From positions 192,001 to 256,000 of the forward strand of contig CAWCKJ010000006.1 of NCBI GenBank assembly GCA_963796105.1: a stretch of 64,000 nt of DNA, written 5' to 3'. The notes under the pieces are model-generated. The model searched no databases. It saw only the letters and a list, made by a program, of their open reading frames with translations, and was not told the origin of the DNA. This stretch comes from a candidate division FCPU426 bacterium (GTDB taxonomy: Bacteria > Oederibacteriota > Muellerivitia > Muellerivitales > Muellerivitaceae). Positions within the stretch are counted from its first letter, which is position 1, and each line of letters starts with the position of its first letter. The translations under genes were made by a program, and so were the position numbers. Of the stretch, positions 1 through 9,130 are shown piece by piece.

Positions 1-856
1 CCGCGTAGGCCCTTTGGGTTTCCTTTTCGAGGGCCTTCAATTCGCGCACGGTCGCCCCGCTGGCCCTGACGGTCTTTAATCCCGCCAGGCTTTCGGAGAT
101 CCTGCCGGAGATGGATTGCCATTGCTCGTAGTAGGAATCCAGGTTGACCCCAAGGCGCTTGGTGGAAGCCACAGCCACCCAGGCGTAAAAGGGAAGGGGG
201 GCCAGCGCCAGGGCCGCCAAGAGGGGGCTTTGGTAAAGCATGATGGCCAGGATGCCAACCAGGCGGACTGCTTCTGGGCCGACCCTTAAGGCCAGCATCG
301 TCACGACCGGCTCGACCTGTTCCACCTGATCGACTTGCTTGGTCAAGAACGAGGCCCTGTCCGTACTGCCACGGCTTAAAGGCAAGTGAAGGGCCTTTTT
401 GAAAGCGGCCAGGATGACCGCCCTTTCCATGCCGTGACCAGCCCGGCTGGTCATGATTTCCGCCCAGGCCGAGGTGAAGGACGCCAAAAGGGAAATCAAC
501 GAGAGGAGAACTACGACCACCGTCAGGGTGGTCATGGCCTGCTTGACGGTGCGGTGCGCCACTGTGTGGCGCGTGTGGGGTTTTTTCGCCTTCCAGGCCT
601 CCAGCAGGGTGGCCTCAACCTTCTCCAGGGAGCCCTCGTCCTTGCTGTTGCTGACAAACACCCCTGCGACGTCATTCACCGCTTCCCGGTAAAGCAAGGG
701 TTGCAGAAGGAGAAGGAGGCTGGAAAAGCCTGCCAGGACCAGGATGCCGATAAACAGGCCCCTTTGCCGTAAGGCCATTTTAAAGAGGCTTGCCACAGGA
801 CGGGCCGCGTCCAGGTCTGTTTCCAAAGCCGGACCCAATCCAAATTCAACCTTCAA
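1..856 (-). CDS. ABC exporter, transmembrane domain (partial; runs off the window edge)
   Basis: My translation gives an open minus frame from TTG at 856 with several hydrophobic helices and ...SGRISESLAGLKTVRASGA..., the typical ABC_membrane 'E.l.G...v+a' segment. Missing from the ORF track because no stop lies in the window. Confidence 0.8.
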   Translation of the reverse strand, partial: MKVEFGLGPALETDLDAARPVASLFKMALRQRGLFIGILVLAGFSSLLLLLQPLLYREAVNDVAGVFVSNSKDEGSLEKVEATLLEAWKAKKPHTRHTVAHRTVKQAMTTLTVVVVLLSLISLLASFTSAWAEIMTSRAGHGMERAVILAAFKKALHLPLSRGSTDRASFLTKQVDQVEQVEPVVTMLALRVGPEAVRLVGILAIMLYQSPLLAALALAPLPFYAWVAVASTKRLGVNLDSYYEQWQSISGRISESLAGLKTVRASGATVRELKALEKETQRAYA

Positions 857-914
857 GTTCGGCCTCTTTTTCCACGGAATATTGTGATCAAATCACACCA
901 GTCAAAATATTATT

Positions 915-1022
915 TAGCCACGGATGTGCCAATCTTCCTCAAAACTTATTAAGAGATTGGTACGATACCGACCTCTTTAATTACTTATAGGAAGGTCGGC
1001 ATGCATGGGATACATGGGATTT
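915..1022 (+). repeat. Twin-hairpin mini-element copy E1
   Basis: TAGCCACGGAT-GTGCCAATCT..AGATTGGTAC-G-ATACCGACCT..AGGTCGGCAT-GCATGGGA; same architecture at five other sites. Confidence 0.85.
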
Positions 1023-1034
1023 AAAGAAACTTCG

Positions 1035-1145
1035 GATCGTGACAAGAGCATGGCTCTTGCGCCCATAGGGTGTTATGTCCCTGCCAGCGGACCTCGGAAA
1101 AACGGATTTTCCCGGAGGCCGTTGGCTGAGCCATATAACACGATC
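1035..1145 (+). repeat. 111-bp multi-stem structured motif, copy B1
   Basis: GATCGTG..CACGATC closing stem, CAAGAGC/GCTCTTG hairpin, GCCC/GGGT hairpin, GGAAAA/TTTTCC apical stem; second copy at 8281-8391. Confidence 0.8.
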
Positions 1146-1213
1146 GATAAGCAATCCTCCATTTAAAACTTAAAATTAAAAATTTAAAATTCATCATGTA
1201 AAAAATGCCTTGC

Positions 1214-1322
1214 CATCCCCCTGCATGCCGAACCTCATTAAAGCCTTCAATGAAAGTTCGGTATAGTGCCGATTTCCTTAAATGCTTCAGGGTTGAATCA
1301 GCACATCCCCTGAATCCGTGGC
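1214..1322 (-). repeat. Twin-hairpin mini-element copy E2
   Basis: Reverse complement matches 8124-8227 with one mismatch. Confidence 0.9.
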
Positions 1323-1351
1323 AAAAAACTTGGTTTTGTAAGATTAACCTG

Positions 1352-1492
1352 TTAAGGAAGGGTGCTTTCCCGGCGGCGGGCCTTTTCCTTGAGTTTGCGG
1401 CGGTTGTCCCTTTTCACCCGCTCCTGGGGTTTAATGGCCCAGACCTTGCGGATCTTGACCGGCCCTGCCTTGATTTTGAGTTTTTTGTTCAT
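1352..1492 (-). CDS. Small, very basic hypothetical protein (46 aa)
   Basis: MNKKLKIKAGPVKIRKVWAIKPQERVKRDNRRKLKEKARRRESTLP; the only plausible ORF between E2 and E3; start uncertain. Confidence 0.45.
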   Translation of the reverse strand: MNKKLKIKAGPVKIRKVWAIKPQERVKRDNRRKLKEKARRRESTLP

Positions 1493-1610
1493 GACGGTAT
1501 CCCGAAACATTAGCCCTTCTGGCAGGCCCTTTACCAATTTGGAATATTAACCCAGAGTACCCCCTTAATCCAGGTTCCAAACACGTCTGAGGCAATTGTA
1601 AGCACGGCTC

Positions 1611-1716
1611 TAGCCACGGATGTGCCGATTCACCAAAAAGCCGATATGAAAATCGGTACGATACTAGCCTCTTTTAGATGTTTTATGGAAGGTTGGCATG
1701 CAGGGGATTCATGGGA
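1611..1716 (+). repeat. Twin-hairpin mini-element copy E3
   Basis: TAGCCACGGATGTGCCGATT..AATCGGTACGATACTAGCCT..AGGTTGGCATGCAGGGGATTCATGGGA. Confidence 0.85.
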
Positions 1717-1932
1717 TAAGATTACAAACACCTAGTAAAAGTTGAGTTTTAAGCCGGGGTCCTGCCCGCATCCTCGGAAAACCCGCCCACATTACTAGGG
1801 GCATGTATCGGGAAGGTTTTCCGTTGGCCGGTGCCGGTGTTTCCGTTGGTCGGTGCCGGGTTTCAGTTGGCTGGGGAGGGGAGTTGGCACAATCGCCCCG
1901 AAATGGCACCATCCGGGATCTTGGTTTCCGCC

Positions 1933-2660
1933 AACCCAGTATTTGGAAAACCCTCAACCCAGTATTGGAGGCCCCAACCCAGTACAACCCAGTATTTGGA
2001 AAACCCTCAACCCAGTATTGGAGGCCCCAACCCAGTACAACCCAGTATTTGGAAAACCCTCAACCCAGTATTGGAGGCCCCAACCCAGTACAACCCAGTA
2101 TTTGGAAAACCCGCAACCCAGTATTGGAGGCCCCAACCCAGTACAACCCAGTATTTGGAAAACCCTCAACCCAGTATTGGAGGCCCCAACCCAGTACAAC
2201 CCAGTATTTGGAAAACCCTCAACCCAGTATTGGAGGCCCCAACCCAGTACAAACCAGTATTCGGAAAACCCTCAACCCAGTATTGGAGGCCCCAACCCAG
2301 TACAAACCAGTATTCGGAAAACCCTCAACCCAGTATTGGAGGCCCCAACCCAGTACAACCCAGTATTTGGAAAACCCTCAACCCAGTATTGGAGGCCCTA
2401 ACCCAGTACAACCCAGTATTTGGAAAACCCTCAACCCAGTATTGGAGGCCCTAACCCAGTACAACCCAGTATTTGGAAAACCCTCAACCCAGTATTGGAG
2501 GCCCCAACCCAGTACAACCCAGTATTTGGAAAACCCTCAACCCAGTATTGGAGGCCCCAACCCAGTACAACCCAGTATGGGGGGCTCAACCCAGTATTCG
2601 GAAAACCGATAACCCAGTATGGGGGGCTCAACCCAGTATTCGGAAAACCGATAACCCAGT
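1933..2660. repeat. Tandem array: 12 x 53-bp units followed by 2 x 42-bp variant units
   Basis: Unit AACCCAGTATTTGGAAAACCCTC-AACCCAGTATTGGAGGCCCC-AACCCAGTAC (1933-2568), then AACCCAGTATGGGGGGCTC-AACCCAGTATTCGGAAAACCGAT twice; no unique spacers. Confidence 0.95.
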
Positions 2661-2745
2661 TCCGTATAGCTAGGCCGGAAGCCCTGTAGGCACGATTTGG
2701 GGGTCCTGTATTCATGAGGTCGGGAGCCACCGTCGGCAGGGAGGA

Positions 2746-2835
2746 TAACCCGCCCACATTGCCGGGAACATGTGTCGGCTGGGGAGGATAACCTGCCCAC
2801 ATCCCTACTGGCATGGTGGATAAACCGCCCACATT
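2746..2835 (+). repeat. Three spaced copies of an AACCCGCCCACAT-like motif
   Basis: ATAACCCGCCCACAT, ATAACCTGCCCACAT and ATAAACCGCCCACAT; a further copy AAACCCGCCCACAT near 1779 on the other side of the array. Confidence 0.7.
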
Positions 2836-2878
2836 TCCGGCGACACCCGGCGACAAGAAACAGGGGTCACAAGAAACA

Positions 2879-2930
2879 GGGGTCAGGCCACACGCTCCGC
2901 AGCGTGTGGCAGAGATCATTCATCACTTTA
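2879..2930 (-). repeat. RAYT end motif copy M1 (with a 25-bp hairpin insertion)
   Basis: GGGGTCAGGCCAC[ACGCTCCGCAGCGTGTGGCAGAGAT]CATTCATCACTTTA. Confidence 0.75.
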
Positions 2931-2937
2931 CTGTCCG

Positions 2938-3624
2938 CGTCACAACCGCGCGGGACATTTGTACCAGGGGCGTTATAAGGCGATTTTGGTCCATAAGGAT
3001 AGTTACTTAAAGGAATTATGCAGGTATGTGGTCTTGAATCCGGTCCGGGCCAAGATGGTCAAGCATCCGAAGGAATGGAAATGGAGCAGTTACCGGGCTA
3101 CGGCAGGTTATGAGACCGAGCCGGAATGGGTGGAAAATAAATGGCTTTTGGAACAGTTTGGAAAAGTGAAACATAAGGCGCAGGGTTTGTACCGGAAATT
3201 CGTGTTGGAAGGCTTGAGGAAGAAAGAGAGCCCATGGGAGCAAGTAACATCGCAGATCATATTGGGGGGGAAAAGTTTTGAGGAGCACATTAAAGGGAAG
3301 ATTAGGGGGAAGCATCACCATGAGGCGCACAGGGAACAACAGAAATTGGGCTTGCCGGATGCCGAGGAAACGCTGAAAAAGATCGGGAAAATGCATGGGA
3401 TTATGGTGAAAGATATGGTGGTTCCGACCCGGCAGAAAAACGAAGGGCGGGAAGCGGCGGTATGGGCCTTACGTCAGATATGCCGATTAAGTTTAGGGGA
3501 AGTGGCTAAGAAGATGGGGGTAAAATACTCCGCGGTAAGCCATGCGGTGGCAAGGATGAAGAAACGCATTCGGGAGGAAAAGGGTCTTGAGGAAAAGATT
3601 CGTAATGCCGTTTACAAGACCTGA
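2938..3624 (+). pseudogene. REP-associated tyrosine (Y1/HUH) transposase with C-terminal HTH, 5'-truncated (HUH motif missing)
   Basis: Frame reads RHNRAGHLYQGRYKA..ELCRYVVLNPVRAKMV..WKWSSY with a DnaA-C-like HTH tail; homology starts abruptly just after motif M1. Confidence 0.85.
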
Positions 3625-3654
3625 CCCTTATTTTCTATATTTTTTGGGCGAGTC

Positions 3655-3681
3655 TAAGGTGATGAATGTTGGCCTGACCCC
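3655..3681 (+). repeat. RAYT end motif copy M2
   Basis: TAAGGTGATGAATGTTGGCCTGACCCC. Confidence 0.85.
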
Positions 3682-4483
3682 TTTTGTTCTATTATGTCAC
3701 GCTTGGGTATTGATGGATAATCATTACCATTTGATGCTGGAAACCCCAAGCGCGAATTTATCAGCAGCCATGAAACATTTAAACGCCCAATACACACAAA
3801 AATTCAATAAAAAGCATTATCGGAACGGGCATTTGTTCCAGGGGCGGTATAAGGCCATTATTGTGGAGAAAGACAGTTATTTAAAGGAATTAAGCCGGTA
3901 TGTGGTATTGAATCCGGTAAGGGCCCGGATGGTAAAACACCCCAAAGACTGGAAGTGGAGTAGTTATCGGGCGACAGCGGGATTTGATAGGGCGGAAAAA
4001 TGGCTGGAAGTGGACTGGTTATTAGGGCAGTTTGGAAAGGAAAGAAAAAAGGCGCAAAAATCATACAGGACTTTTGTGGAAGAGGGGATGGGGAAGAAAG
4101 AAAAGCCTTGGGATGATTTGTATTCGCGTATATACCTGGGTGGTAAGGAGTTTTTGGACAAGGTTCACGAAGTAGGGCAACGTCACAAACATTTGGATGT
4201 ACCGAAATATCAGAAACACGTGGTAAAGCAAGATCCGAAAGAAGTGCTGGAGAAAGTAGGAAGAATGTATGGTAAAAAAGCGGAGGAAATATTGAGGGCA
4301 GGCAAAAGGGAGTCGGAAGCCCGGGATATGGCGATATATTTATTGAAGAGAAAATCAGGAATGAGTTCCAAGGCGATAGGAATGAAGATGGGGGTGGGGG
4401 AAAGCGCGGTGGGAAACCGATTGATGAAGATCAAAAAAAGGTTAGCGGAAGACGAGAAGTTTGCGCAAAAGCTGATAAAGTGA
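3662..4483 (+). pseudogene. Second RAYT/Y1 transposase with C-terminal HTH; N-terminal strand missing, HUH and catalytic Tyr retained
   Basis: CHAWVLMDNHYHLMLETP (HUH), GHLFQGRYKA, RYVVLNPVRA, WKWSSY. It lacks the usual N-terminal 'YHV..RG' segment; an in-frame ATG is supplied by motif M2. Confidence 0.85.
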
Positions 4484-4502
4484 TGAATGATGGCCTGACC
4501 CC
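4476..4502 (+). repeat. RAYT end motif copy M3 (contains the transposase stop codon)
   Basis: TAAAGTGATGAATGATGGCCTGACCCC. Confidence 0.85.
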
Positions 4503-4838
4503 TTTGTTTTATTTGTAGCCGCCCGAATCCAGTATCACGGCCATCGGGATGTGGTGAGGTATTCAATCCATGATGATAGGACAGCGGGCCTATTGGGTTT
4601 CCTCAAATACCTTGATCGAAAACGATTGGAAAGACCCAGGGCGGCCTAGAAATGGCTTGGTGCAAAAAATTCTTTGCACATAAGTTCACTTCTGATGAAA
4701 ATGGCCACTGTCGGGTCCCGATTCAGGCCGATCTGGCCACGGAATCGGTAAACTTGGTGCAAAATTCAGGTATTAGTTTTATGAAAACTGCGAATCGCCA
4801 ACCAGAATTCAGAATCATGACGTTGAAAGGGGATTTCT

Positions 4839-5876
4839 ATGAATCTCTTTAAATTACAGAAAGTAATTTTTGCTTTTGTGGTTTCAATGGTTCTTATGTC
4901 GCCAATTATTGGTTTGACAGCAGAGAAAGCATCCGCCGCCAAAAAGATTACCCCGAAAGTAGACTTTCCAAAGAACCCATCTGAAGGGGTGCTGATCGCT
5001 ACCATACCCTGGAAAGCGGTAACCATTATGAGAGGGGGGAAATCTTCTAACGATAAATTGTCATTAAAAAATTGGTCTTTCGACGCAATTCCTTTAGTTG
5101 TGTATCTCATTAAAAATAATAACGGTTCAGTAATAAACCTTGGCTCAAGAAGTGGTCCGGGTTTTTTAAGAACAGATCAAAAAGGCAATTTGTTTATATT
5201 TTATGGTGGCTCGATTTTTATTTACGACATTAAAAATCAAACCGTTAAGTACAACGGAGATTTATTGAAAAAAGAAGGCGGGTCTCCCGTTGACTTGGAA
5301 ATGTATACGAATGGGGATATTAGTTTTTTGGTAAGGGACAATAAAAGCTTCGGCGACGATAGCGTGCATTATGTAAGAAAAAACCTAAAAGGCGACTTGA
5401 TCAACGAAAAAAGAGTTATTCCAAAGATAATGGCTGAACACCAACTTTCAAAATGGACCCTAAGTCGGGGCGATATTTATTATGCGAAAAGTGGAAATAC
5501 TGAGAAAATTGATTCTATTTCGAATTTAACTGAAGAAGAAAAAGATAAAATTGGAAATAAAATTATAGAATCCACGGAAACTGATTTGCGGAATATGAGA
5601 AAAACGATTGAGAAAGATATATTTCACCTTTTCATCGCACCACTCCATTTTGTGCAAGAAATGAAGGGTAGTGAATATTATTGGACTAATGGGGTATTTG
5701 ATGGTCGGGCCGAAGTTGATGTAGTTTATATTAGAAATAAAAAAGGAAATCATAAAATTTATATTTTGCCGCCTGAAAGCAAATTCTGGCGGATGGTTGA
5801 TGAAAACGGCAATTTTTATTCCAAGGTTGATACGCCAAATGCTCTTGAGGTTTACAAGTACGTTGTTAATTGGTGA
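4839..5876 (+). CDS. AT-rich secreted hypothetical protein (345 aa)
   Basis: Long ORF with AAAGGGG RBS and an N-terminal signal-like segment; composition visibly more AT-rich than the core genes. Confidence 0.8.
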   Translation: MNLFKLQKVIFAFVVSMVLMSPIIGLTAEKASAAKKITPKVDFPKNPSEGVLIATIPWKAVTIMRGGKSSNDKLSLKNWSFDAIPLVVYLIKNNNGSVINLGSRSGPGFLRTDQKGNLFIFYGGSIFIYDIKNQTVKYNGDLLKKEGGSPVDLEMYTNGDISFLVRDNKSFGDDSVHYVRKNLKGDLINEKRVIPKIMAEHQLSKWTLSRGDIYYAKSGNTEKIDSISNLTEEEKDKIGNKIIESTETDLRNMRKTIEKDIFHLFIAPLHFVQEMKGSEYYWTNGVFDGRAEVDVVYIRNKKGNHKIYILPPESKFWRMVDENGNFYSKVDTPNALEVYKYVVNW

Positions 5877-6004
5877 GGAAAAATTTGAAGGAAAAATATC
5901 TTCTTATTTTCTGGTTATTTCTGCCTGGAATTATTTACGGGGATATAACCCTTAATCCTGTTGATTCCGAAACATGGGTTTCGACAGTTGGTGTAGTTCC
6001 TGCC
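5873..6004 (+). pseudogene. 5' fragment of a secreted-protein gene cut off at end motif M4
   Basis: GTGA overlap with the upstream stop; signal-like LLIFWLFLPGIIYG; the frame then runs into the repeat. Confidence 0.5.
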
Positions 6005-6019
6005 GAACAAGAGAAATCA

Positions 6020-6046
6020 GGGGTCAGGCCACCATTCATCACTTTA
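6020..6046 (-). repeat. RAYT end motif copy M4 (inverted relative to M3)
   Basis: GGGGTCAGGCCACCATTCATCACTTTA. Confidence 0.85.
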
Positions 6047-6048
6047 GA

Positions 6049-6081
6049 CCTGAAATCTTCCGCTCGAATCCCGCGCCCCCA
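6049..6081 (+). repeat. 33-bp direct repeat, left of the TA module
   Basis: CCTGAAATCTTCCGCTCGAATCCCGCGCCCCCA; 29/33 identical to 6935-6967. Confidence 0.75.
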
Positions 6082-6098
6082 TACATCTTTTTTTAAGT

Positions 6099-6138
6099 GT
6101 CAAGTGCACTTGACGAAGACGGGACGATAGCCTATCAT
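6099..6138 (+). promoter_or_regulatory. sigma-70 promoter of the TA operon with a palindromic operator
   Basis: TTGACG-17 nt-TATCAT; perfect 16-bp palindrome GTCAAGTGCACTTGAC overlaps the -35. Confidence 0.65.
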
Positions 6139-6156
6139 TTTATTGGAGGGGCCGGC

Positions 6157-6519
6157 ATGGAAGCTTTTCCTAGAACTATTGTTTACTATTAAACCGCCGA
6201 CGGGAAAAGACCATTCATCGAGTGGATTGAGGAACAAGAAGATGCACTGAGACACCGGATCAACACACGATTTTTACACGTTGAAAATGGGAATTTCGGG
6301 GTCCACCGCAAGGAAGGTAATGGGGTTTTTGCACTGATATTTGAATTTGGACCGGGTTATAGGATTTATTACGCGTTAACTGAGGAACAAAAGGTTGTTT
6401 TGCTATTCACGGGGGGCACGAAGAAAAGGCGGGAAAGTGATATTGCGAAGGCCCACGAGTATTGGGCGGATTTAAAGGCGAGAAAAGCCATGGAAGCGAA
6501 GGGGAAAAAGAAGGATTGA
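6157..6519 (+). pseudogene. RelE/ParE-superfamily addiction-module killer protein with a nonsense codon
   Basis: MEAFPRTIVYY*TADGKRPFIEW..GNFG..FGPGYRIYY..VVLLFTGGTKKRRESDIAKAHEYW; TAA at 6190-6192; GGAGG RBS. Confidence 0.85.
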
Positions 6520-6544
6520 TCATCTGATAAATGGAGGTTTCGTT

Positions 6545-6871
6545 ATGGGTAAAACATCGGGAAGCTACAAGGAATATTTGCTTAAAAAACTGAAAGATCC
6601 GAAAGAAAGGGCCGGATATTTAAACGCCGCTTTGGAGGATGGCGATCCCGGAATTCTCCTGGCCTGCCTCAATGATTGCGCTAAAGCAATGGGAGGAAAA
6701 ACTTGGCTTGCCCGCGAAGCCCATTTGTCCCGCCAAGCCATTACCGCGATTGTTTCGAAGGATGGAAACCCCATGTACCGGAACCTAACGCGTGTATTGG
6801 CTCCAATGGGTTTGCGCTTCAAAATTGTGACGGGTGTTGGCAATCGAACGAAACAATTAACCCACGCTTAA
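6545..6871 (+). CDS. Addiction-module antidote protein (HTH antitoxin)
   Basis: YLNAALEDGDP..LAREAHLSRQ..DGNP..VLAPMGL pattern; directly downstream of the toxin; GGAGG RBS. Confidence 0.88.
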   Translation: MGKTSGSYKEYLLKKLKDPKERAGYLNAALEDGDPGILLACLNDCAKAMGGKTWLAREAHLSRQAITAIVSKDGNPMYRNLTRVLAPMGLRFKIVTGVGNRTKQLTHA

Positions 6872-6934
6872 AGTTCTTCGGGGAAATAATTGTCCCGCTT
6901 ATTCCAGTTGTTTAACAACGGAATCACTTAAGGC

Positions 6935-6967
6935 CCTGAAATCCCCCGCTTGAATCCCGCGTCCCCA
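6935..6967 (+). repeat. 33-bp direct repeat, right of the TA module
   Basis: CCTGAAATCCCCCGCTTGAATCCCGCGTCCCCA. Confidence 0.75.
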
Positions 6968-7020
6968 AGTTGTCCATGAGACGCCGCTTTCTTGTTTGCG
7001 TCCGCCGAATATCCTTGTTC

Positions 7021-7665
7021 CTAAAAAGGTTTTCCGCAGTTGGGGCAAACCAGGCGGGCGGCGAACCAGTGGCCGTCGGAGCGGGCGTAATCAGGGAAAA
7101 ATTCCGCTTCCAGGACGACCAGGCATTGGGCGCACTTGAGGCCGGCTTCCATCCCTAGATCCTGCTGGAGCTGGGGCTCGTTGCCCTGGCCGGTCTTGAT
7201 ATGGAGCCGGTAGGAATTTTTCACGGCTTTTTTCTGGCGGTCGTGCAGGAGATCCCGGATCTTGCTCAGGATCTGCCTGGGCGTATAAAACCCCTTGACG
7301 GTATAGTCGTTGGCGCCCATTTGAAGGGCTTTTTGGACATCCCGGGGCTCCCCAAGGACCGAGAAAATAATGACGGGAATATCCTTGGTCTGCCCGCTCC
7401 GGCGGATTTTCTCGAGGACCTGGAATCCGTCCAGCACCGGAAGCCCCAAGTCCAAAAGAACCAGGTCCGGCTTATGGGCCAGGATCATATCCCAGCCTTC
7501 CTCGCCGTTGGTGCTCTCAATCACCGCGTAACCATCCGCCTCCAGGACATCCTTGTAAACCCTGCGAAAGCCGCGCTGGTCCTCCATGATCAGTATGGTT
7601 CCTTTTTTCCCCTTCTCGGCCAAAGGTTTAACCTCGTTTGGGGATTGAGTAGTTTCATTTTGCAT
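7021..7665 (-). CDS. Response regulator: receiver domain plus C-terminal CxxC..CxxC zinc ribbon
   Basis: ILIMED, PDLVLLDLGLPVLDG, GANDYTVK; CAQC..CPNC. Confidence 0.9.
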   Translation of the reverse strand: MQNETTQSPNEVKPLAEKGKKGTILIMEDQRGFRRVYKDVLEADGYAVIESTNGEEGWDMILAHKPDLVLLDLGLPVLDGFQVLEKIRRSGQTKDIPVIIFSVLGEPRDVQKALQMGANDYTVKGFYTPRQILSKIRDLLHDRQKKAVKNSYRLHIKTGQGNEPQLQQDLGMEAGLKCAQCLVVLEAEFFPDYARSDGHWFAARLVCPNCGKPF

Positions 7666-8046
7666 GATGGTTCCTCCTGGAATGATGATTGTGGCTGGGA
7701 TCTCTTGATGTAAATGGGTTGCCGGGAAACAGCAAGCTTATTCCAAAAAATTCATGGGGTGCTAAAGAAATAAAGCGGGGAAAAGCTTGCTTGGTATTGA
7801 CGGCGTCCTGGCAGGATGAAGGCAATCACGCGCCGAGATAAGAAAATTATCCCTCGGGTCCTGGGGAATTCCCAATTTATTCGACGTTGTCATGACGATA
7901 GTGGAGCAGGGGGCATTTGCACATTTTCGGAATTGAATGACAAGTTTCATGGCTTTCCAAATAACAACAAAATCTAGCTAATTAAGATAAATAAAATTAG
8001 ATGTTTTTAATTCTAAAAGGCGTTAAGCAAGACAAGTCTTTGCCAC

Positions 8047-8123
8047 GTGCCAGCCTGCCATAAGGCAATAGAAGAAGGCTGGTACAGTACCGATCTCAAT
8101 ATATCTTTATGGATGATCGGCAC
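8047..8123 (+). repeat. Twin-hairpin mini-element copy E4
   Basis: GTGCCAGCCT..AGGCTGGTAC-A-GTACCGATC..GATCGGCAC interrupting GCCAC|GGATTCAGGGGA. Confidence 0.8.
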
Positions 8124-8227
8124 GGATTCAGGGGATGTGCTGATTCAACCCTGAAGCATTTGAGGAAATCGGCACTATACCGAACTTTCATTGAAGGCTT
8201 TAATGAGGTTCGGCATGCAGGGGGATG
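8124..8227 (+). repeat. Twin-hairpin mini-element copy E5
   Basis: Near-identical inverted copy of E2. Confidence 0.9.
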
Positions 8228-8280
8228 AATAAAAATGAACAAAATGAAAAATGTACAATGAATAATTCAAAAATGTCTCA

Positions 8281-8391
8281 GATCATGACAAGAGCACGGC
8301 TCTTGCGCCCGATGGGCGTTATGGTCAAGCCTACAGACCGTGGAAAAATTAATTTTTCCATCGGCTGTCAGCTTAACCATAGAACATGATC
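8281..8391 (+). repeat. 111-bp multi-stem structured motif, copy B2
   Basis: GATCATG..CATGATC, CAAGAGC/GCTCTTG, GCCC/GGGC, TGGAAAAA/TTTTTCCA. Confidence 0.8.
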
Positions 8392-8400
8392 AAAATGCGT

Positions 8401-8512
8401 TTTAAATCCCATGAATTCCATGCATGCCAGCCTTCCATTAGGATGATATTGGGGCTGGTATCGTACCAATCTCCGTAAAGGTTTTTGGAAGATTGGCACA
8501 TCCGTGGCTAAA
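8401..8512 (-). repeat. Twin-hairpin mini-element copy E6
   Basis: Reverse complement begins TTTAGCCACGGATGTGCCAATCTTCC and ends CATGGGATTTAAA, as E1 does. Confidence 0.85.
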
Positions 8513-8536
8513 TTCTTTGGGTAGGGGTGGGTTAAT

Positions 8537-9130
8537 TTAATAGGCTTTGTTGCACTTGCCGCAAAGGAAGTGCGCCGTGAACCAATGGCCCTCATTGTGG
8601 ACATAGTCCGGAAACAGCTCCAATACCAGTTCACCCTGGCACTGGGGACATTTGTTCTTGCTGGTAAACCCCAATTCCGACCAAAGAAGGGGAGCGTCCT
8701 CCGTGCCATCCATCACCTTCACCTTGAAAGAAGCGCCCCCTTTTGCGGGGCCGGCTTTCGTCATCAAATCCTTGATCTTGCTGAGGATTTGACGGGGAGT
8801 ATAAAAACCCTTCACGGTGTAATCGTTGGCTCCTAAATCCATCCCTTTTTGGATGTCCTTTTGTTCCCCCAGGACCGAGAAAATGATGACGGGCACGGCT
8901 TTAGTATCAGCGTCGGCGCGAATCCTCTTGAGGACCTCGAAGCCGTCCAGCACCGGGAGCCCCAAGTCCAGCAATACCATTTGGGGTTTCCGGGATTTTG
9001 TCATGGCCCATCCGGTCTCGCCGTCGCCGGCCTCCAAAACCTCATAGCCCTCGTTCTCCAACAGGTCCCGGTAGATGCGCCTGAAACCCTGCTGGTCCTC
9101 GACAATCAGAATGGTACCCTTGCCCCTCAT
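8537..9130 (-). CDS. Response regulator: receiver plus zinc ribbon (paralog of 7021-7665)
   Basis: VLLDLGLPVLDG, GANDYTVKGFYTPRQIL; CPQC..CGKC; overlaps the kinase stop (ATGA). Confidence 0.9.
   Translation of the reverse strand: MRGKGTILIVEDQQGFRRIYRDLLENEGYEVLEAGDGETGWAMTKSRKPQMVLLDLGLPVLDGFEVLKRIRADADTKAVPVIIFSVLGEQKDIQKGMDLGANDYTVKGFYTPRQILSKIKDLMTKAGPAKGGASFKVKVMDGTEDAPLLWSELGFTSKNKCPQCQGELVLELFPDYVHNEGHWFTAHFLCGKCNKAY

Follow-up and report, generated by a model that had tools for sequence, protein, structure and literature searches.

A pile-up of TIRYT element ends in a Muellerivitaceae genome, with junctions suggesting that each end joins new DNA on its own

Organization of the locus

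The window analysed here is a 64,000-nucleotide stretch of the genome of a candidate division FCPU426 bacterium (GCA_963796105.1, contig CAWCKJ010000006.1, positions 192,001 to 256,000), and coordinates given without a contig refer to it. Near its start, four copies of a 27-bp motif lie where the original prediction had placed them: M1 (2879-2930, inverted and with a hairpin insert), M2 (3655-3681), M3 (4476-4502) and M4 (6020-6046). A fifth end (family B, 3605-3628) and a 16-nt stutter copy (2854-2869) had been missed.

M1 is a family-A-type terminal repeat on the minus strand, interrupted by a hairpin insert with a 9-bp stem (25 nt net). It forms the left end of a 750-bp non-autonomous chimera (2879-3628, plus strand) composed of this A-type end, the 3' two thirds of a family-B gene and a family-B right end. 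The family-B TIRYT fragment (2937-3624, plus strand) is devoid of about the first 89 codons, HUH included, and keeps YVVLNP and the helix-turn-helix (HTH). Outside M1 lie a tail (2870-2878) and the stutter copy (2854-2878 for the two, minus strand), whose inner boundary is the T of TGACCCC. Since the chimera occurs three times in the genome (98.7-98.8% identity) with different flanks, it moves as a unit. The breakpoint predicted at M1 does exist as a junction with a gene fragment; it is located, however, on the inner side of the repeat, within this three-copy unit.

The right repeat of the chimera, together with a 7-nt tail (3605-3635, plus strand), is joined to the inner side of M2, of which a remnant is left (3636-3691, plus strand): 19 inner nucleotides, the repeat and a 10-nt tail fused into a family-A TIRYT gene (3692-4483, plus strand; about 98.5% identity to intact copies). 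The M2 tip joins this gene at codon 50, and as homology to intact A copies begins 11 nt past M2, the left end and the first 49 codons are lost. The cut predicted at M2 is therefore real, although the homology does not start directly after the motif. The stop codon of the gene is contained in M3, as had been proposed; M3 is the natural right repeat of family A and is followed by a 9-nt tail (4476-4511, plus strand). To the three motif copies originally seen as breakpoints M3 must be added, as its tip cuts an IS1380-type element of 1644 bp, present in 19 full copies in the genome, and leaves only the last 259 bp (4512-4770) with the 5-bp target copy (4512-4775, plus strand).

M3 and M4 had been described as facing each other across 1.5 kb of AT-rich DNA; they do, but 4512-4770 is the IS1380-type remnant and the AT-rich cargo is limited to about 4780-6000. 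There, an AT-rich 345-aa ORF (4839-5876, plus strand) has a signal peptide predicted from sequence and three homologues at 50-61%; it matched no Pfam family, and its predicted fold (mean pLDDT of 37.7) was set aside. The start of a second ORF (5870-6010, plus strand), for which a homologue search found none, runs into the M4 tail and was plausibly cut off by M4. M4 itself is a solo end made up of the repeat, a tail and inner sequence (6010-6081, minus strand). The locus is thus a pile-up of a chimera, a remnant end in an A gene, the end of that A gene in an IS1380-type element, and a solo end. Short-read contigs gave independent sight of two junctions: that at M3 was present in run X1, possibly the source sample, and an A-to-B end junction of a similar kind on contig C4 was seen in run X2. 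The read-derived contigs, which are shallow and prove nothing for the parts they leave uncovered, contained no circle junction and no new junction.

Several other features surround the pile-up. A toxin-antitoxin pair (6157-6871; weak Gp49-like match and addiction antidote), with a stop at codon 12 of the toxin, sits between M4 and a degenerate direct copy of the inner 45 nt of M4 that has no tip (6923-6967); its frame is open in another genome (G001), in a different context. Upstream, a non-coding tandem array holds 12 copies of a 53-bp repeat (1932-2660) whose family is present at several loci, and two other arrays of this family are cut directly by TIRYT tips. We rejected the idea that the elements make tandem arrays: although an array lies within 300 nt of 6 of the 65 ends, compared with 1.7% of random sites, most of the 118 arrays are far from any end. 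Abundant dispersed repeat families, each with dozens of genomic copies, occupy 882-1340, 1606-1718 and 7935-8535.

The motif is the terminal inverted repeat of a TIRYT element

When up to four substitutions were allowed, the 27-mer was found 27 times across the 4.98-Mb genome and not once in three base-shuffled genomes. Pattern searches for related types gave 65 ends in 38 scattered clusters, a list to which three ends were added by hand and from which one weak match was dropped. Outward-facing repeat pairs about 1 kb apart enclose a 312-aa gene in many copies; the motif thus forms the inverted ends of a mobile insertion element, a TIRYT. Family A has seven full copies (97.9-98.8% identity), all with an intact 312-aa frame; besides these there are one diverged A-like copy, two copies of family B (99.5% identity) and two of family C. 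The repeats measure 27 bp on A and 24 bp on B, and are alike at both sides, inverted and non-palindromic. The same polymorphisms recur among the A copies, which suggests exchange between them. A plasmid search for the element returned seven distant records and no multi-copy set.

An intact A copy matched Pfam Y1_Tnp with 50.8 bits (cut-off 23), and a Bac_DnaA_C-like C-terminal HTH gave a weak match (E of 1e-4 to 4e-4, below the Pfam curated cut-off). The family-A protein contains DNHYH and YVVLNP, and the motif set of TnpA-Y1 subclass 2.1.2 was found as NHYH, LFQ, YVVLNP and WSS. The terminal motif GGGGWSAS appears as GGGGTCAG on A and as the variant AGGGTCAG on B. Among 170 related loci collected from relatives, metagenomes and other genomes, 105 have the repeat pair. 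By its anatomy and sequence motifs, the element is classed in all features tested as a TIRYT and as a member of subclass 2.1.2. It is an unusually active TIRYT, a kind that already has a name, and not a new capture system.

Several different hairpins with a 9-bp stem and a CACT or CCCT foot replace the same three nucleotides of the terminal repeat (window 2887-2914; G000 C2:367181, C2:367357, C4:1206117, C4:1265509, C12:12595 and C12:177571). Four full A copies carry one, and the chimera has moved with one. Similar hairpins also occur outside ends, including one between two bare tips (C12:185137-185176). At G000 C2:367121-367357, two hairpin-bearing solo ends adjoin the end of a CRISPR-like repeat-spacer array.

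Most breaks fall 6-11 nt beyond the repeat

An end was testable when its flank matched DNA elsewhere at 90% identity or more, a definition that retains 19 of the 65 ends, all adjoining repeated DNA. Homology of the flank began at +6 to +11 past CCCC in 15 of these 19 ends, later in four, and never at +1 to +5, while only 8 of 973 control positions fell in the +6 to +12 band (Fisher p of 6e-14). The breaks therefore lie 6-11 nt beyond the CCCC end and not, as had been predicted, at it. The predicted tie between the motif and truncations does hold among the testable ends of the genome, and because the ends are so strongly tied to breakpoints, the test named for refuting the prediction fails to refute it. 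The intervening tail of 7-10 nt (consensus WWTGTTY in this genome) differs from the parent sequence, meaning that it travels with the element. GTTY was rejected as a target site: the parent sequences do not contain it where they are broken, and the tails differ between families.

We then looked at what lies on the two sides of the elements. The missing half of the cut DNA was found at the partner end in none of 16 junctions, the sole such hit beside any end being a tandem-array copy on another contig. Direct repeats were not in excess in 115 flank pairs (19 4-mers compared with 17.0 in shuffled sequences, and 4 5-mers compared with 4.6), and a search of the collected loci and this genome for empty sites of 106 elements gave none. 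As a control, the co-resident IS1380 element shows a 5-bp target duplication in 15 of 19 copies; its copies are about 99% identical and the A copies about 98%, so that the latter look older and have had more time for later deletions. No consensus target was seen among the 16 parent sequences. The first shared base at the junctions is C in 5 of 16 and a pyrimidine in 14 of 16 (p of 0.002-0.015, depending on the null), a weak hint of short homology. In five metagenome pairs, the element and one flank are common and the sequence differs beyond the other tail, while other pairs share neither flank; between L207 and L203, about 950 nt beside the tip are missing in L207. We did not find this junction signature described in print, our search having found no literature on TIRYT junctions within a range that left most subscription journals and supplements outside.

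Stutters, end duplications and copied host DNA

Tip stutters were present at 43 of 207 distinct ends of the 170 related loci, compared with 59 of 3000 controls. In 15 of the 43, the T of TGACCCC is the first base of the stutter unit, and in 18 the unit begins in a second cluster, at -1 to -4, so a single nick site does not explain all stutters; the new copy begins at +5 to +12 in 38. Two pairs of related loci differ in stutter number and keep the outer flank. Tandem duplications of at least 40 nt end at the tip in 9 of 11 cases in the 170 loci (six flagged by script and three read by eye, two of the nine being one locus). A 2-kb duplication in L199, bounded by another repeat, was dropped.

Copies of host DNA lie behind some tips while their parents are intact. 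The longest (2553 nt, 97.9% identity) is on contig C7, where a copy of 6338-8895 (plus strand), a single-copy segment running from the 3' part of the toxin-antitoxin pair to part of a response-regulator gene, stands between two family-B elements; its boundaries each coincide with a tip, and the genes at its two extremities are truncated. A tip on C12 adjoins a 938-nt copy (99.4%) of the first part of a gene for 537 aa, the intact version of which is on C11. A solo tip on C9 adjoins a 665-nt copy (99.7%) from inside an Rhs gene, for which conversion between paralogues could be an alternative origin. Two further tip-fused cases are truncated copies of other IS elements.

Two more complex arrangements were observed. 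In G001 (L027:1678-5738, contig C24), a TIRYT is flanked by a 1.5-kb inverted duplication of 99.8% identity, which could come from both ends joining one site on sister strands or from an assembly effect. At G000 C12:330361-332310, the DNA between facing tips is a mosaic of segments that match C11, C6 and C2 and are joined in tandem-repeat arrays.

Comparison with known systems

IS91-family elements also use HUH chemistry, make no target duplication and undergo one-ended events that move flanking DNA; their enzyme is of the Y2 type, their ori and ter ends differ from each other and they use a fixed tetranucleotide as target. We rejected this assignment, as the ends here are symmetric and the 16 parent sequences have no common target; the GTTY of the tail moves together with the element and was not seen in the broken parent sequences. 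IS200/IS605 (about 150 aa, Y...Q motif, unlike hairpin ends) was rejected because of the 312-aa protein, its Y..NP motif and the inverted ends. An integron was rejected as well: orientations are mixed and genes are cut mid-frame, whereas integrons hold whole genes in one orientation between like sites, and no integron tyrosine integrase was found among the nine ORFs scanned at 2-9130.

The TIRtron or TIRYT was described as a RAYT-like gene within inverted repeats starting GGGGWSAS (Di Nocera, De Gregorio, Rocco 2013, PMC3733652). As in that description, the gene end lies within the right repeat here, and the genome contains additional repeats that occur alone, in pairs or in clusters. The copy-number burst, the junction position, the flank analysis, the stutters, the non-autonomous chimeras and the captured host DNA are, with respect to the sections of that description available to us, particular to the present case. 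The element resembles TnpA-Y1 subclass 2.1, subgroup 2.1.2, as outlined by Quentin et al. 2018 (PMC6006769), in the NHYH, FQ, Y-NP and SS motifs, the Bac_DnaA_C-like tail and the absence of REPs. Subgroup 2.1.2 corresponds to RAYT Group 1 (Bertels et al. 2017, PMC5581495), of which 6.2% are given as duplicates in that paper. The available portions of the TIRYT and subclass 2.1.2 papers (PMC3733652, PMC6006769) report low copy number and no evidence of mobility, in contrast to the seven intact copies of about 98% identity and the mobile derivatives observed here.

The REPtron enzymes TnpA-REP (E. coli, Stenotrophomonas) share the same nuclease core; as described, they recognise GTAG-tagged hairpins, have no HTH tail and are usually single-copy (PMC8266576), whereas the repeats here are inverted and non-palindromic. 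REPtrons (RAYT groups 2 and 3) were rejected, because we found no GTAG-tagged palindromic REPs, but an optional hairpin inside the repeat with a CACT or CCCT foot. The related TnpA-REP enzymes are reported to cut C|T, the tyrosine being kept on the T, and to join a 3'-OH to this T (PMC8266576); the cut matches the stutter inner boundary observed here.

A model in which ends act singly, and its rivals

The sequence evidence leads us to favour, as probable, a reading in which the locus consists of junctions left by single ends that joined unrelated DNA one at a time. The HTH would bind the inner part of the terminal repeat, and the Y1 domain would nick the outward-reading strand, most likely at CC/TGACCCC, and stay bound to the 5' T. 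That exact nick site is proposed tentatively, and we hold it as somewhat more doubtful than not, because the stutters have a second cluster and the targets show no consensus. Extension of the freed 3' end would then copy TGACCCC together with 7-10 nt of the old flank, and the resulting 3' tip would be joined by HUH strand transfer or by a short-homology template switch. Joining to the nicked strand would give a stutter, to the element itself an end duplication, to nearby DNA an adjacent deletion, and to distant DNA a copied, truncated gene. As each end would join new DNA alone, neighbouring genes would be deleted or copied, and no cassette array would be built; a new full copy would represent two single-end events, and its two flanks would accordingly stem from different sites. 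Within the pile-up, the right tip of the chimera would have removed most of the M2 element, M2 the front of the A copy, and M3 most of an IS1380. It counts against this model that end duplications at a distance require a 3' tip able to join any DNA.

The junctions might also result from ordinary two-ended insertion without target duplication, followed by adjacent deletions and recombination between copies. Adjacent deletion and IS-IS recombination are reported to erase target duplications commonly (PMC11708052), the A copies are about 2% diverged with recurring polymorphisms suggestive of exchange, and the elements sit in variable regions among other repeats. We nevertheless regard this as unlikely: the missing half was at the partner end in 0 of 16 junctions and the co-resident IS1380 has retained 15 of 19 target duplications, while stutters with a fixed inner boundary and gene copies whose intact parents have no end nearby are left unexplained. 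It seems extremely improbable that misassembly around a repeated element of 1 kb created the junctions. The assembly is in 16 contigs with many repeats, and no compared read contig spans the whole locus; but the M3 junction and the C4 A-to-B end junction were recovered in short-read contigs of the two runs, every copy has its own substitutions and tail, and the same signatures occur in other genomes and in metagenomes.

The original prediction took the motif for the recombination site of an HUH system that splices arbitrary pieces into an array. The splicing of arbitrary pieces survives in part, since ends are indeed joined to arbitrary cut-off DNA, including other RAYT genes, with some copies of host genes; the dedicated array is not supported. 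In its integron-like form, such a system would build arrays of cargo (for example orphan Rhs toxin ends and secreted-protein genes) for the benefit of the host. Eleven facing end pairs enclose 1-11 kb in this genome, the C7 segment has a tip at both boundaries, an end is found within 6 kb of 6 of the 9 Rhs cores, a distance that takes in 8.2% of the genome, and in G016 three copies alternate with truncated Rhs fragments. The motif is, however, the repeat of a multi-copy element of about 1 kb, and we found no common orientation, uniform cassette or REP-type hairpin target. Most pieces in the window are broken transposons, the ends vary in orientation and spacing, captured genes are broken off within their frames, and intact elements multiply as an IS does; of 10 Rhs cores in five relatives only four are close to an end, these four belonging to two genomes, and mobile elements gather in such islands anyway. 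With cargo cut mid-gene and in mixed orientation, capture looks like a by-product, and a dedicated system is in our view very unlikely.

The single-end reading bears on other genomes, subclass 2.1 having been found in 14.9% of the species surveyed by Quentin et al. (PMC6006769). Because this genome shows recent TIRYT multiplication, a junction signature that can be measured and a predicted nick site, it opens the transposition of TIRYTs, and its mechanism, to direct tests. If the ends do act singly, these small elements would generate deletions, duplicated gene fragments and composite units on a wide scale, and the products, which carry no target duplication, would escape IS finders. A bolder proposal would make TIRYTs a replicative class of HUH transposon, so far unrecognised and with two origins, in which each end independently splices a copy of itself onto arbitrary DNA; hosts would exploit this to copy parts of genes and to set down cassettes of orphan Rhs toxins. 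This proposal appears quite unlikely to us. The G016 arrangement (L023, G016:C64:236389-245878) lies downstream of a long Rhs gene, and its three TIRYT copies are near-identical and alternate with small ORFs as well as with the truncated Rhs fragments.
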